In this document: positions 58,896 to 63,941 of the stretch, one piece after another
Position numbering within the stretch: the stretch's first letter is position 1
Layout of the letters: every line of letters begins with the position of its first letter
Assembly (NCBI GenBank): GCA_021790255.1
Contig: JAJYIE010000002.1
Span: 413 to 64,412 of the forward strand
Length of the DNA stretch: 64,000 nucleotides
Direction: 5' to 3'
DNA from: a bacterium
Lineage (GTDB): Bacteria; Patescibacteriota; Microgenomatia; Daviesbacterales; UBA10151
Program-made: the position numbers and the translations under genes
Notes under the pieces: generated by a model
Seen by the model: the letters and a program-made list of their open reading frames with translations, nothing else
What the model was told of the DNA's origin: nothing
Database searches by the model: none

Positions 58896-59954
58896 CTAGA
58901 ATTTCTCCAAAAATTTCAGATCGCCTTTTAAAAGCTCTCGGATATCATCAAAACCATACTTGAGCATCATGATCCGCCCAACTCCCGGTCCCCAGGCAAT
59001 CCCTGAGTAAATTTCGGGATTAATACCGCCGTTTTTTAAGACGGTTGGGTGAATCATACCGGCGCCGGCAACTTCCAACCAGCCGGTGCCGCCGCAAACT
59101 TTACACCCTTGGCCGTGACAGAAGATGCACAAGCCGTCAATACCAACTCCCGGCTCAACGAATGGGTAATACTTTGGACGCAGTCTGACCTTGATGTCTT
59201 TTCCGACGGTGTTTTGTAAAAAATATTCCGACAAGTACTGCAAATTAGTCATACTTACACCTTTATCAATATAAACCAGTTCGAATTGCTCGAAAGTGTG
59301 CTCGTGGCGGGCATCTAGGTTTTCGTAGCGGTAGCAACGGCCGATGCTCATCATTCGAATGGGTGGTGTGAAATCGCGCATAATTCTTACTTGGGCGTTA
59401 GAGGTGTGAGTCCGCAGCAGCAATTCGCCTGGGCTGTAACCGGTTTTTTGGGGATCAATATAAAGAGTGTCCCAGAGGTCGCGGGCTGGATGGCCTTCCG
59501 GGATGTTTAACAACCCGAAATTATATTCGTCGGTATCGATTTGCGGCGCGTCGAATTGCTGAAAACCGAGCTTTTCAAACAGGTCAACAGTTTCCTGAAT
59601 AAATTGAGTCGTGGGATGAAGATGTCCATGCCTTGGCTTAATTTCCGCCGTGCCGAGATCATATTTTTCCGTGGTTAATTTAGCGTAACTTTCTTCCCGG
59701 ACTGCCTGTCGGCGGTTTTCGATAGCGTTGTCTAATTCATGTTTGGTTTGATTAAACAATGGTCCGATTTTTTGCAGTTCTTCCATGGGTAATTTACCAA
59801 ACTCCTTTGGTAAAAGCGTGATGACGCCGTTTTTGCCGAATAACGCCAAAAAAAGCTCATCCAGTTCTTTTAAAGTTTTAGCCTGGTTTATATTCAAAAA
59901 ATAATCAGTTTTAATTTTGTTTAACTTTTCTTCCATTGTGTTTAATTTTAGCAT
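58896..59954 (-). CDS. pheS: Phenylalanyl-tRNA synthetase alpha subunit
   Basis: Class II motifs FRPSYFPFVEPG-like (YPFVEPGVGID) and motif 3 GAGMIHP, with a Zn-like CxxC...CxxC insert. Confidence 0.9.
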   Translation of the reverse strand: MLKLNTMEEKLNKIKTDYFLNINQAKTLKELDELFLALFGKNGVITLLPKEFGKLPMEELQKIGPLFNQTKHELDNAIENRRQAVREESYAKLTTEKYDLGTAEIKPRHGHLHPTTQFIQETVDLFEKLGFQQFDAPQIDTDEYNFGLLNIPEGHPARDLWDTLYIDPQKTGYSPGELLLRTHTSNAQVRIMRDFTPPIRMMSIGRCYRYENLDARHEHTFEQFELVYIDKGVSMTNLQYLSEYFLQNTVGKDIKVRLRPKYYPFVEPGVGIDGLCIFCHGQGCKVCGGTGWLEVAGAGMIHPTVLKNGGINPEIYSGIAWGPGVGRIMMLKYGFDDIRELLKGDLKFLEKF

Positions 59955-60073
59955 AGGATAGATTTATACACTATTGATATGCGATCCACCGGTAAGCGGA
60001 TCTGAGGATTTACCTATATTCCACTTTTGGCAGCAGAGAAGATTTATCCTCTGCCGCCTTATGTGGTTACTAT

Positions 60074-60469
60074 TCACATTCCCAAAACCGGATGGCGCCT
60101 AAGGATATTGTCCAATCTTGTGGCTGATGATGTCTGACTTTGAAAAAGGTCATTAAGTGGCGGAGCAGCTACTTTTTTCACCAGCAACGCGTAACCTCTA
60201 CCCAGTTCATGAGATGCAAATCCTTTTGCCGAAACCATAACTATTCGCCGTTTGTTGCCTGGGTTGACCAGCTCAATGTCACCACTCAAAATATACTTAC
60301 GGCCGCCCGGACGGACATTTATCCCGGCACATTTGATAATCAGTTCGCCTGCTGATGTTAAATAAGTGCCTGATTTATCCTCAGCAATTTGTGCAAGCAA
60401 CTGGGTGTTTGCTACTTTCTCTGCCTGGCTTTGTGATTCAAGGTAATGCTCAAGTTCAATAGATAGCAT
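60074..60469 (-). CDS. Hypothetical protein (about 131 aa) with SD AGGAGGTGA
   Basis: ORF. The second ATG at 60469 has better SD spacing than the one at 60478. Confidence 0.4.
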   Translation of the reverse strand: MLSIELEHYLESQSQAEKVANTQLLAQIAEDKSGTYLTSAGELIIKCAGINVRPGGRKYILSGDIELVNPGNKRRIVMVSAKGFASHELGRGYALLVKKVAAPPLNDLFQSQTSSATRLDNILRRHPVLGM

Positions 60470-60516
60470 TATTCTCACCTCCTTCCACGGTCATACTAAT
60501 ACTAACCTCTAATGAC

Positions 60517-60581
60517 TAAAAAAGCCCCTGTAAACCCTCCGGTACTTCGGCTGCGCCTGGTACTAAAGAATTTACAAGGGC
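60517..60581 (-). promoter_or_regulatory. Leader stem-loop (10/11-bp stem, 36-nt loop) followed by UUUUUU, about 40 nt upstream of the hypothetical ORF; attenuator or riboswitch-like candidate
   Basis: GCCCCTGTAAA (60524-60534) pairs with TTTACAAGGGC (60571-60581). On the minus strand the stem is followed by six U. Confidence 0.3.
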
Positions 60582-60630
60582 CCTTTGACTCGCTATGCTT
60601 GCTTAGGACTGTGCCACCTTGTGCCGTTGA

Positions 60631-60658
60631 TTCTTAACAAAAATCCCCTTGCGGGGAG
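60631..60658 (-). terminator. Rho-independent terminator downstream of rplT (minus strand: ACTCCCCGCAAGGGGATTTTTGTT)
   Basis: 5-bp GC stem with GCAA loop, then UUUUUGUU. Confidence 0.5.
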
Positions 60659-60849
60659 TATGTCAGAATTAACCTTATTCATGACATGCTCCGCAAACTT
60701 GCGACACATGTTGTTGACTTTTACAGTTTCGCCTCTGTCGCATATTTTTGCGCTCCTCCCCGGTCCCAACCTTCCGGATCAACGGATTTTTTATTCAGTT
60801 ATGAAAGTATTATATCACAAAAAACAAACGGTTGAATTTGCGAAAGTAA

Positions 60850-61197
60850 TTAGGATATGGCTTCAGAAATGACTTTTTTGAATGCTTCGGGGCCTTTGAC
60901 TGCCAGCTCAGCTAAAATTTTACGGTCCAATAAAATATTTCTGGCTTTGAGCGCAGCTATGAACTTGGAATAGGAAATTCCTTCATTGTCTAGGGCGATG
61001 CCTATTTGGGTAATCCATAACCTGCGCAGATCCCGCCGGCGCTGTTTGCGTCCGGCAAAGGCATATTTCCCGGCATGCAGGGAAGCTTCCTTGGCCTGCT
61101 GGAAAACGTGACGGCGCCCCCCCTGGTAGCCTTTGACCAGGTTCAGCAGTTTTTTATGTTTTCGATGTGCTGTAACACCTCTTTTGACTCGCGACAT
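60850..61197 (-). CDS. rplT: 50S ribosomal protein L20
   Basis: MSRVKRGVTAHRKHKK N-terminus. Confidence 0.95.
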   Translation of the reverse strand: MSRVKRGVTAHRKHKKLLNLVKGYQGGRRHVFQQAKEASLHAGKYAFAGRKQRRRDLRRLWITQIGIALDNEGISYSKFIAALKARNILLDRKILAELAVKGPEAFKKVISEAIS

Positions 61198-61356
61198 ATT
61201 TTTTAGATATTATTGTTGTTTTTCCCCCGGACCTTGAGATAATTCCAGACCCTTTGATGCCAGGTACCACGCTGCACGCTGGCGTAAGCCTGTGCTCCCC
61301 TATTGCCGGCCATGGAACTTCTTGTCTGGCGATAATTTTTTGTGTTTTTACCCATA

Positions 61357-61554
61357 TTATTTTCCGATCATCCTCTTTAATGTTTTTTCCAACCGTCCCC
61401 TTATGACCATTGGCACTTTATGCCGGCGCAGAGCCTGTTTGCTTTTGTTGCGGCGCAAATGGCCGGAACGAAGCTGATGTGAACGCAACAGCTTACCGCT
61501 GCCGCTCAGCTTAACCTTTTTTAGTAATGTTTTATTTGTTTTGACTTTCGGCAT
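61357..61554 (-). CDS. rpmI: 50S ribosomal protein L35
   Basis: MPKVKTNKTLLKKVK..., 65 aa. Overlaps the infC 3' end by 23 nt. Confidence 0.9.
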   Translation of the reverse strand: MPKVKTNKTLLKKVKLSGSGKLLRSHQLRSGHLRRNKSKQALRRHKVPMVIRGRLEKTLKRMIGK

Positions 61555-62086
61555 TTACAATCTCCTGTTTTGGTTTGATTTTGGCCATCCCGATGATTGT
61601 TGTCATGTTCCTGCCTTCAAATTTGGTTTCCCGCTCCACAATAACTTTCTCCCCCCAAAACTTCAAAGCATTTTCCACAACCTTGTAACCCTGCTCTGGG
61701 TGAGCCATCTCCCGCCCTCGAAACTTAACTGTCAGCTTAACCTTATCCCCTTCTTCCAAAAACTCATTTGCCTTTTTAAGCCTTGTCTCCAGGTCATGGG
61801 CAGCAATCCGCGGAGACAGCCAGACCTCTTTTAACTCTACCTCCCGGACCCTCTTGCGGGCTGCCTGTTCCTTTTTATCTTCCTGATATTTAAATTTCTC
61901 AAAATCAACAATGCGGGCAACCGGCGGCTGGGCGTTTTCTGCAACCTCTACCAGATCCAGTTCCTGCTCTGCTGCCTTTGCTAAAGCTTCTTCCCGGCTA
62001 ATGACACCCAACTGGGCACCATCGGCGTTAATTACCCGCAGTTCCTGCGCTTGGATCCGTTCGTTAATGCGATAATACTTACCTAT
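61532..62086 (-). CDS. infC: Translation initiation factor IF-3, probably initiating at a non-AUG codon (AUA at 62086..62084, or AUU at 62068..62066)
   Basis: A conserved N-terminal segment RINERIQAQELRVINADGAQLGVIS is encoded in frame upstream of the track's TTG start. An in-frame TAA sits immediately 5' of the AUA. No ATG, GTG or TTG exists in that stretch. SD GGAGGT lies 6 nt before the AUA. Confidence 0.8.
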   Translation of the reverse strand: MGKYYRINERIQAQELRVINADGAQLGVISREEALAKAAEQELDLVEVAENAQPPVARIVDFEKFKYQEDKKEQAARKRVREVELKEVWLSPRIAAHDLETRLKKANEFLEEGDKVKLTVKFRGREMAHPEQGYKVVENALKFWGEKVIVERETKFEGRNMTTIIGMAKIKPKQEIVNAESQNK

Positions 62087-62186
62087 CTTTTAACCTCCGC
62101 AAGTTTTAGGGCTCCGAGTATAGATATTATCATAAATTAGCCTTGGATTCAATGGTTCGACTCCTTATGGCCGCCCACCACAAGTC

Positions 62187-63941
62187 TTAGGCTTTTTTCT
62201 CCTTAATCTCCTCTGTTATTTTACTAATAAACTTGTCGATTGTCATTACGCCTAAATCATCTCCGGCTCGTGTCCGTACGGTTACTTGCCCGGCTTCCTG
62301 TTCCCTTCCGCCGATGATTAACATGTAAGGGACTTTTTGCATCTGGGCGTCGCGGATTTTAGCTTGCATCTTCTCCGACCGGTCGTCAAGTTCTGCCCGG
62401 ATGCCTACAGACAATAATTGTTCGAATACTTTTTGGCTATATTCATTCTGGCGATCGGTAATGGGTATAATTTGCACCTGAACCGGGGAAAGCCAGGCCG
62501 GCAAAGCCCCAGCATAGTGTTCCAACAAAAAAGCCATTGTTCGCTCAAATGCCCCAATTGAAGAACGATGAATAACTATTGGTTCTTTTTCCTTGCCGTC
62601 TTTATCAATGTATTTGAGGTCAAAGCGTTTGGGCATGACAAAATCGTATTGGATCGTGAATGCTGTTTCTTCCTTACCGCTGACAGTTTTTACTTGGATG
62701 TCGATCTTTGGGCCGTAAAAAGCTGCTTCTCCTCCTGCTTCAGAAAATGGCTGTTTGGTTTCAGTTAAAACCCCTCGCAGTACATTTTCGGCATAATCCC
62801 AGGCAGCATCATCTTGATAGTATTTTTTCTCATCCGACCTGTCTCCTAAAGAAAGCCGGTAGCGGTAATCTTCTCTCTTCTTAAGCCCTAAAGCTTTATT
62901 GACATAATCAATTAAGTCCAGCACATCTTTAATAACACCCTTAGCCTGCTCGGGAGCAGCAACAATGTGAGCATCGGCCAGACAAAAAGTCCGTACCCGG
63001 CTTAAACCGGTCAGTTCACCACTTTTTTCATAACGGAATTGAGAGGCAAGTTCGGCTATTTTTAACGGCAAATCTTTATAACTTCTCGTTTGAGACTTAT
63101 AGATCATAAAATGATGAGGGCAAGTCATCGGGCGTAATATAAGCTCCTCTTCGTCGATTTTCATTGGAGGATACATGGTATCTTTGTAATAAGGATAATG
63201 GCCGGACGTACGGTAAAGATCGACTTTGGCCAAATGTGGAGTGACGACATGCTGGTAACCTCTTCTTATTTCTTCATCCACAACGAACCGCTCCAACTCT
63301 CTTCTGATAGTTGCTCCTTTAGCAGTCAGCAGCGGCAAGCCCTTTCCTACTAGGTCGGAGAAAACAAACAGTCCTAAGTCCTGGCCAATTCGTCGGTGGT
63401 CTCTTTTCTTGGCTTCCTCCAGCATATTCAGATAGTTATCCAACTCTTCTTGAGTTGAGAAGGCTGTACCGTAGATTCTGGTGAGCATTTTGTTTTTTTC
63501 ATCTCCCCGCCAATAAGCGCCGGCTAAAGAAAGCAGTTTGAAAGCTTTGATTTCCTGGTTTGGTTTTTCCAGATGGCCGCCGCGGCAAAGGTCTTCGAAA
63601 TTACCGGTTTTGTATAAAGTGATAGGCTGATTGTCTTTTTCCAGATCATTGATTAGCTCCAGCTTGTATGGGTTGTCGGCGAAGATTTTTCTGGCCTCGT
63701 CAGCGGAAATTTCCCGTTTTTCTGCTTTATCCCACGATCTTACCAGCTCCCCCATTTTGGCTTCAATTTTGGGCAACTCTTCTTCTGAAATGGTTTTGTT
63801 TAACTCAATGTCGTAATAAAAGCCATTCTCAATCACCGGCCCGATAGTGGGTTTGGCGCCGGGGAAAAGTTCTACCACGGCAGCGGCCAAAAGATGGGCA
63901 GTGGTATGTCTTAGATTGTTTAATTGTTCCTGGTTGTCCAT
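62187..63941 (-). CDS. thrS: Threonyl-tRNA synthetase lacking the N-terminal TGS domain
   Basis: Editing-domain start HTTAHLLAAAV...GPVIENGFYYD, class II core, and a C-terminal anticodon-binding domain. 584 aa. Confidence 0.9.
   Translation of the reverse strand: MDNQEQLNNLRHTTAHLLAAAVVELFPGAKPTIGPVIENGFYYDIELNKTISEEELPKIEAKMGELVRSWDKAEKREISADEARKIFADNPYKLELINDLEKDNQPITLYKTGNFEDLCRGGHLEKPNQEIKAFKLLSLAGAYWRGDEKNKMLTRIYGTAFSTQEELDNYLNMLEEAKKRDHRRIGQDLGLFVFSDLVGKGLPLLTAKGATIRRELERFVVDEEIRRGYQHVVTPHLAKVDLYRTSGHYPYYKDTMYPPMKIDEEELILRPMTCPHHFMIYKSQTRSYKDLPLKIAELASQFRYEKSGELTGLSRVRTFCLADAHIVAAPEQAKGVIKDVLDLIDYVNKALGLKKREDYRYRLSLGDRSDEKKYYQDDAAWDYAENVLRGVLTETKQPFSEAGGEAAFYGPKIDIQVKTVSGKEETAFTIQYDFVMPKRFDLKYIDKDGKEKEPIVIHRSSIGAFERTMAFLLEHYAGALPAWLSPVQVQIIPITDRQNEYSQKVFEQLLSVGIRAELDDRSEKMQAKIRDAQMQKVPYMLIIGGREQEAGQVTVRTRAGDDLGVMTIDKFISKITEEIKEKKA

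Follow-up and report, generated by a model that had tools for sequence, protein, structure and literature searches.

Probable initiation of a Daviesbacteria infC gene at a near-cognate AUA codon, with IF3 autoregulation as the likely purpose

[quoted passage not shown] Near-cognate initiation of this gene is proposed from a comparison of related species, which sets the position of the N-terminus in an organism that is uncultivated. The closest proteins to the window IF3 belong to Candidatus Daviesbacteria (CPR/Patescibacteria), and Pfam assignment of the neighbours places the gene in the operon context thrS - infC - rpmI - rplT (Table 1), with about 100 nt between thrS and infC.

Table 1. Features of the infC region, in window coordinates
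Feature	Position	Strand	Basis or remark
thrS (threonyl-tRNA synthetase)	62187..63941	minus	upstream neighbour of infC; Pfam tRNA-synt_2b, HGTP_anticodon, tRNA_SAD
Sigma-70-type promoter (predicted)	62124..62152	minus	-35 TTGAAT 62152..62147, 17-nt spacer, extended -10 TG 62132..62131, TAATAT 62129..62124
Shine-Dalgarno GGAGGT	62093..62098	minus	6 nt before ATA
In-frame TAA	62090..62092	minus	closes frame two codons before ATA
ATA initiation codon of infC (proposed)	62084..62086	minus	homologous-codon spectrum, codon-choice contrast
ATT, internal Ile codon	62066..62068	minus	rejected as start
TTG of public call, internal Leu codon	62009..62011	minus	rejected as start
infC (IF3), re-annotated CDS	61532..62086	minus	ATA start to TAA stop, 184 aa; IF3_N and IF3_C, TIGR00168; start set by 80-species comparison
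rpmI (L35)	61357..61554	minus	Pfam Ribosomal_L35p
Small basic ORF, 50 aa, between rpmI and rplT	61203..61355	minus	pI 11.7
rplT (L20)	60850..61197	minus	Pfam Ribosomal_L20

Read in minus-strand order, the start region runs GGAGGT (62098..62093), TAA (62092..62090), AAG, ATA (62086..62084), GGT AAG TAT TAT CGC, ATT (62068..62066), AAC GAA CGG ATC CAA GCG, and the N-terminal segment translates as K-I-G-K-Y-Y-R-I-N-E-R-I-Q-A-Q-E-L-R-V-I-N-A-D-G-A-Q-L-G-V-I-S. An earlier note made from this DNA had given the same coordinates and translation, every one of which proved correct when the minus strand was read again, and had held that the conserved N-terminus is without an AUG, GUG or UUG start; the first such codon in frame past the TAA at 62092 is indeed TTG 62011, which is also the start in the mechanical list of open reading frames. 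The frame that opens after the stop comprises 185 codons and matches Pfam IF3_N at residues 8-76 (100.4 bits, cut-off 26.9) and IF3_C at residues 84-166 (99.1 bits, cut-off 34.8), while the infC family TIGR00168 matches residues 6-167 at 186.5 bits (cut-off 60) and IF3 proteins in the PDB match the window protein down to an E-value of 1.5e-44. The solved IF3 proteins of G. stearothermophilus (5me0) and T. thermophilus (5lmn) each have a Lys aligned to Lys3 of the window protein and start just one residue ahead of it, so that an IF3 of 184 residues initiated at ATA would have a normal N-terminus.

For comparison, 80 species-level loci from GTDB genomes, drawn from 420 relatives found, were aligned codon by codon with the window. 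The counterpart of ATA 62086 was CTG in 37 loci, ATA in 21 (23 if two loci shifted by one codon are included), ATC in five, ATT in two, ATG in four and TTG in two, with eight of the 80 carrying no start-codon assignment (L022, L060 and a clade whose IF3 is extended at the N-terminus); all six of these codons are table-11 initiators. An alignment of related infC 5′ regions had been put forward in the earlier note as a check on its proposal, and with a near-cognate codon at the homologous position in most of the 80 species it supports ATA. In 64 of the 67 near-cognate loci, no ATG, GTG or TTG occurs in frame in the stretch from the upstream stop to the invariant Asn at +7, and an in-frame stop lies at most 30 nt upstream in 62 of 69 relatives, directly adjoining the start codon in 35 of them. 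Mean column entropy at codon positions 1/2/3 was 0.79/0.52/1.45 for codons +1 to +24 as against 1.76/1.73/1.74 for codons -24 to -1; since there is periodicity downstream and none upstream, the coding signal begins at the ATA-homologous codon.

The choice of codon at this position departs from that in the remainder of the gene. Leu at the start position is encoded by NTG in 39 of 39 cases, against 428 of 1310 (33%) in the IF3 body, where CTG alone makes up 14% of Leu codons (p 4e-19, Fisher), and Ile at the start position is ATA in 23 of 30 cases, against 230 of 802 in the body (p 1e-7, Fisher); the units of these tests are species, which share ancestry and so are not phylogenetically independent, although a neighbour-joining tree of IF3 has at least 16 changes of codon state. 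The codon at the start position is constrained as nucleotides and not as an amino acid, and the lineage as a whole shows selection for a start-capable near-cognate codon at the start of infC. On the same tree window infC falls within an ATA clade. The lineage can do without a near-cognate start, as the four relatives with ATG and the two with TTG attest. One clade (L064, L074, L075, L077, L078 and L079) has CAA (Gln) at the start position, and there the frame runs on upstream (..Y-Q-P-K-P-Q-G-K-Y-Y-R), giving an IF3 with a longer N-terminus.

Two alternatives to ATA were weighed, ATT 62068 and TTG 62011 (the two ALTERNATIVES), the former having been named in the earlier note as a second candidate beside ATA. 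Initiation at ATT 62068..62066, which would yield a protein beginning M-N-E-R-I-Q-A, has in its favour that ATT is the initiator of E. coli infC and that the Pfam IF3_N profile begins at the residue it encodes. We nevertheless regard it as highly improbable, as in the five codons before it (G-K-Y-Y-R) the amino acids are kept while the triplets change synonymously: at +2 to +5 the protein retains K, F/Y, Y/F and R although the codons are exchanged freely (AAA/AAG; TTT/TTC/TAT/TAC; six Arg codons), which means that these codons are translated. Moreover, the position homologous to ATT is Leu in 42 of 69 relatives (TTA 16, CTT 15, CTA 7, CTC 3), Ile in 22 and Thr in three, the codon lies 24 nt from the SD, and solved IF3 proteins reach further N-terminally than a start here would allow. 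Of the two candidates in the earlier note, ATA was thus upheld by the near-cognate spectrum and by GGAGGT at 6 nt, while ATT was rejected on the coding constraint upstream of it and on the predominance of Leu, as TTA or CTT, at its homologous position. That the public call is right, and that IF3 starts at TTG 62011 without its first 25 residues, is extremely improbable: this TTG is the sole canonical start in frame and was the one chosen by the gene caller (protein P0001), but it has no SD before it, codon periodicity and purifying selection span the stretch that would be removed, and TTG at the homologous position is found in a minority of relatives. The 25 IF3_N residues lost, among them the invariant N8, I11, L16, R17, V18 and G23, align with solved IF3 structures, which bears out the view taken in the earlier note that the TTG call cuts off an IF3-like N-terminus. 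A canonical start concealed by a sequencing or assembly error, which the note had raised as a missing base hiding an AUG, is vanishingly improbable. All 2053 nt of an independent Logan assembly (L081) are identical to the window at 63090..61038, so that no indel hides a canonical start, and the same arrangement recurs in more than 60 other species.

The SD of window infC places AUA at a functional spacing, and the motif itself is enriched in the window, with 45 GGAGGT sites against 25 expected and none of 100 shuffles reaching 45. Among near-cognate relatives, 64 of 66 carry an SD of the GGAGG/AAGGAG type of at least 5 nt at a spacing of 5-11 nt. Further upstream, 66 of 73 loci carry an extended -10 element (TGnTAnnnT), against a mean of 9.6 and a maximum of 20 in shuffles; it usually lies 24-39 nt before the start codon, and in 49 loci TTGA.. 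precedes it by 16-18 nt, the -35 overlapping the thrS stop in some relatives. The corresponding promoter in the window scores 8/12 against the consensus, plus the TG, and is absent from the list of a generic promoter scan, which gave a 10/12 site inside thrS (62246..62218). From the conserved element, the transcript is predicted to start near 62117 with a 5′ UTR of about 31 nt, and a promoter at this place, between thrS and infC, implies a transcript of infC-rpmI-rplT that is separate from that of thrS. The infC leader is unstructured (fold z = +1.09). Control by an L20 leader of the Bacillus type was considered and set aside, as the leader shows this lack of structure and no Rfam match to L20_leader or another RNA regulator was obtained in 59900..62300, whether at the gathering threshold or at E <= 1.

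In the mechanism that we propose, the strong GGAGGT located 6 nt upstream would place the 30S subunit on ATA 62086..62084, on a short and unstructured leader that would be transcribed from the conserved promoter in the thrS-infC spacer, and the product would be the full-length IF3 of 184 residues, presumably with fMet at position 1. Abundant IF3 would reject initiation complexes on its own mRNA, while scarce IF3 would let them through. IF3 is known to reject non-canonical start codons, which is the basis of infC autoregulation in E. coli (PMC5499595 and the references it cites), and AUA, AUU, AUC and CUG form one efficiency class with about 1-2% of AUG initiation in E. coli (10.1101/063800). 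The earlier note had described AUA as an even rarer choice than AUU; this does not hold, since all four codons belong to the one class and ATA is the usual Ile-type infC initiator of the lineage. The window ATA belongs to the class that IF3 discriminates against, and the only non-canonical triplets in the lineage are ATA, ATC, ATT and CTG, with six canonical cases besides. As only near-cognate codons discriminated by IF3 are used, feedback of the E. coli type is the most likely purpose, and we infer that autoregulation through start-codon discrimination is the likely function of ATA.

The ATA start could be real and yet serve, together with its strong SD, only to fix the level of expression, with no feedback by IF3. 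The evidence for this comes in part from the canonical-start relatives: the four with ATG (L017, L040, L067 and L080, about two origins) have no SD, and in the two with TTG (L046 and L059, two origins) the SD has moved to 14-15 nt, a pattern of SD loss or shift which looks like compensatory evolution of initiation strength, read from canonical-start loci at positions about 1470-1503 and from only about four independent switch events. Compensation of this kind is compatible with either feedback or a fixed level. In addition, the AUU start of E. coli infC does not keep IF3 from being a fairly abundant protein (PMC5499595). Set against a fixed level are the restriction to four IF3-discriminated triplets over at least 16 state changes, and the consideration that a mere rheostat could equally use GUG or UUG with a weaker SD, codons which are rare here (2/73). 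We therefore judge the absence of feedback to be unlikely. Whether start codon and SD of Daviesbacteria infC evolve as a coupled pair, a near-cognate codon always going with a strong SD, which was lost or displaced at each of about four independent changes to AUG or UUG, is a question on which we consider the chances to be even. By clade, the near-cognate codon is CUG in one large group and AUA, AUC or AUU in another. If evolution is coupled in this way, the set-point of IF3 feedback would be under selection even in the reduced genomes of the CPR, and CUG would be the dominant infC initiator of a whole clade; no description of CUG as an infC initiator was found in the literature searched, a search that was incomplete.

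It is very unlikely that ATA is reached by termination and reinitiation after a short upstream ORF (uORF) and not by de novo initiation directed by the SD. Upstream ATG-initiated ORFs that end at or adjoin the infC start are frequent in relatives, TAA or TAG directly adjoins the start in 35/69 loci, and the window has a uORF of its own, from ATG 62133 to TAG 62085..62083, overlapping the infC start as ATAG. However, in long uORFs such as this one the ATG is part of the conserved extended -10 element and for that reason probably lies upstream of the transcript start, and ATA followed by G or A makes a stop in the +1 frame automatically. An ATG adjacent to the SD is weakly enriched (20/30 and 15/27 leaders, against 2-20 for permuted trinucleotides), and the window has none. 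Coupling to a uORF as the main mechanism was rejected on these two grounds, the distal ATG being that of the extended -10 and the enrichment of the SD-adjacent ATG being weak, and SD-directed initiation at ATA is retained. In several relatives (L024, L028, L034, L038, L043 and others) an ATG directly 5′ of the SD, about 20 nt before infC, opens a mini-ORF of 4-7 codons whose TAA or TAG adjoins the CTG start, as in ATG AAG GAG GCT CGT TAA CTG; the window has only TTG at the corresponding place (62100..62102).

Initiation of infC at AUA is already documented, and the window gene adds a case from the CPR. Such a start is less unusual than the earlier note had implied, since AUA-initiated infC genes have been mapped experimentally in F. 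johnsoniae (PMC7797042) and S. aureus (PMC13009471). The classical system is that of E. coli, in which infC starts with AUU and IF3 autoregulates its own translation (Butler 1987, Brombach and Pon 1987, Sussman 1996, cited in PMC5499595). Window infC shares with it the thrS-infC-rpmI-rplT context, an initiator of the IF3-discriminated near-cognate class and an SD at normal spacing, but has AUA instead of AUU and a spacer of about 100 nt with its own conserved promoter after thrS; feedback was shown in E. coli and is extrapolated from there to the window gene. In F. johnsoniae, infC had been misannotated and its ATA start was established by LC-MS/MS and mutagenesis (PMC7797042). The codon, the wrongly annotated canonical codon downstream and the argument from conserved N-terminal residues are common to both cases, whereas Bacteroidetes are largely without SD-directed initiation and the window ATA has a strong GGAGGT. 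In S. aureus, initiating ribosomes were located on the AUA of infC by retapamulin ribosome profiling and are directed by an extended SD (PMC13009471), and the pairing of AUA with a strong or extended SD is shared with the window, strong-SD pairing being seen in 64/66 near-cognate Daviesbacteria loci; unlike in this Firmicute, where the start was mapped by profiling, the start in the CPR window is proposed from sequence comparison. The infC operon of B. subtilis is governed by an L20-dependent transcription attenuation leader (PMC1865079; Rfam L20_leader), and the window has the infC-rpmI-rplT operon in common with it but no L20_leader match at E <= 1, its leader being unstructured and only about 31 nt in length. 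No paper on IF3 start codons in Patescibacteria was found in the literature searched, this search likewise being incomplete. The window gene indicates that the Candidate Phyla Radiation probably also has the IF3 start-codon device known from Proteobacteria, Firmicutes and Bacteroidetes.

Window infC is a correctable annotation error. The public protein P0001 is the same gene begun at TTG 62011 (159 aa; 99% identity over 86% of the query), and misses 25 conserved N-domain residues that IF3 in its corrected form, at 184 aa, has. Gene callers have given close homologues lengths of anything from 130 to 210 aa, a spread that exists because these programs admit only ATG, GTG and TTG and so truncate or over-extend the gene. 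Nearly all close homologues share I-[GAS]-K-[YF]-[YF]-R-[ILV]-N-x-x-I-Q-A, preceded by unrelated sequence, and two relatives named by NCBI (P0010 and P0011) have M exactly at the Ile position, where their DNA (L010 and L012) reads ATA. A start rule can be stated for the lineage as a whole, namely a near-cognate codon 5-11 nt after GGAGG and just before G/A-K-Y/F-Y/F-R. Many Daviesbacteria-like contigs of GTDB representatives (L001, L007, L008, L016, L017 and others) bear the record title 'uncultured Gammaproteobacteria bacterium' or 'archaeon', and appear to be mislabelled MAG submissions.

At the other end of infC, the last 23 nt of the gene (61532..61554) are shared with rpmI, which has its ATG there. 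Relatives often show such an overlap, of 4-62 nt, and translation of L35 may thus be coupled to that of IF3. Beyond rplT, an ORF of 134 aa initiated at GTG (60074..60478, minus strand) precedes pheS and has no Pfam match, and the approximately 370 nt before it (60479..60849) contain no convincing ORF and match no Rfam family at E <= 1. The distance between rpmI and rplT is bimodal in relatives: 24 loci have -8 to +17 nt between the two genes, and 42 have 128-261 nt. The long form, represented in the window by 61355..61203, encodes a conserved protein of 44-58 aa that about 39 of the 66 related species possess and whose sequence follows the pattern MG[KR].T[KR]NF[RK]Q...NY..[IV]NR.G.W..KI.N..K.RGK. 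Structured RNA in the 159-nt rpmI-rplT spacer was rejected, as the fold z is -0.55, there is no Rfam match and the spacer is taken up by this protein-coding ORF. The window copy (50 aa) begins MGKNTKNYRQTRSS, is separated by only 1 nt from the stop codon of rpmI and by 5 nt from rplT, and contains no acidic residues. The conserved ORF shows codon periodicity (0.81/0.82/1.36). It has no Pfam, NCBIfam or PDB relative, a PDB profile search included, its 123 database relatives are all from Daviesbacteria and all unnamed or 'hypothetical protein', and its AlphaFold model is a low-confidence helical hairpin (pLDDT 65, pTM 0.25). Because of its composition and its position between L35 and L20, we speculate that this small basic protein may be a lineage-specific ribosome-associated protein.
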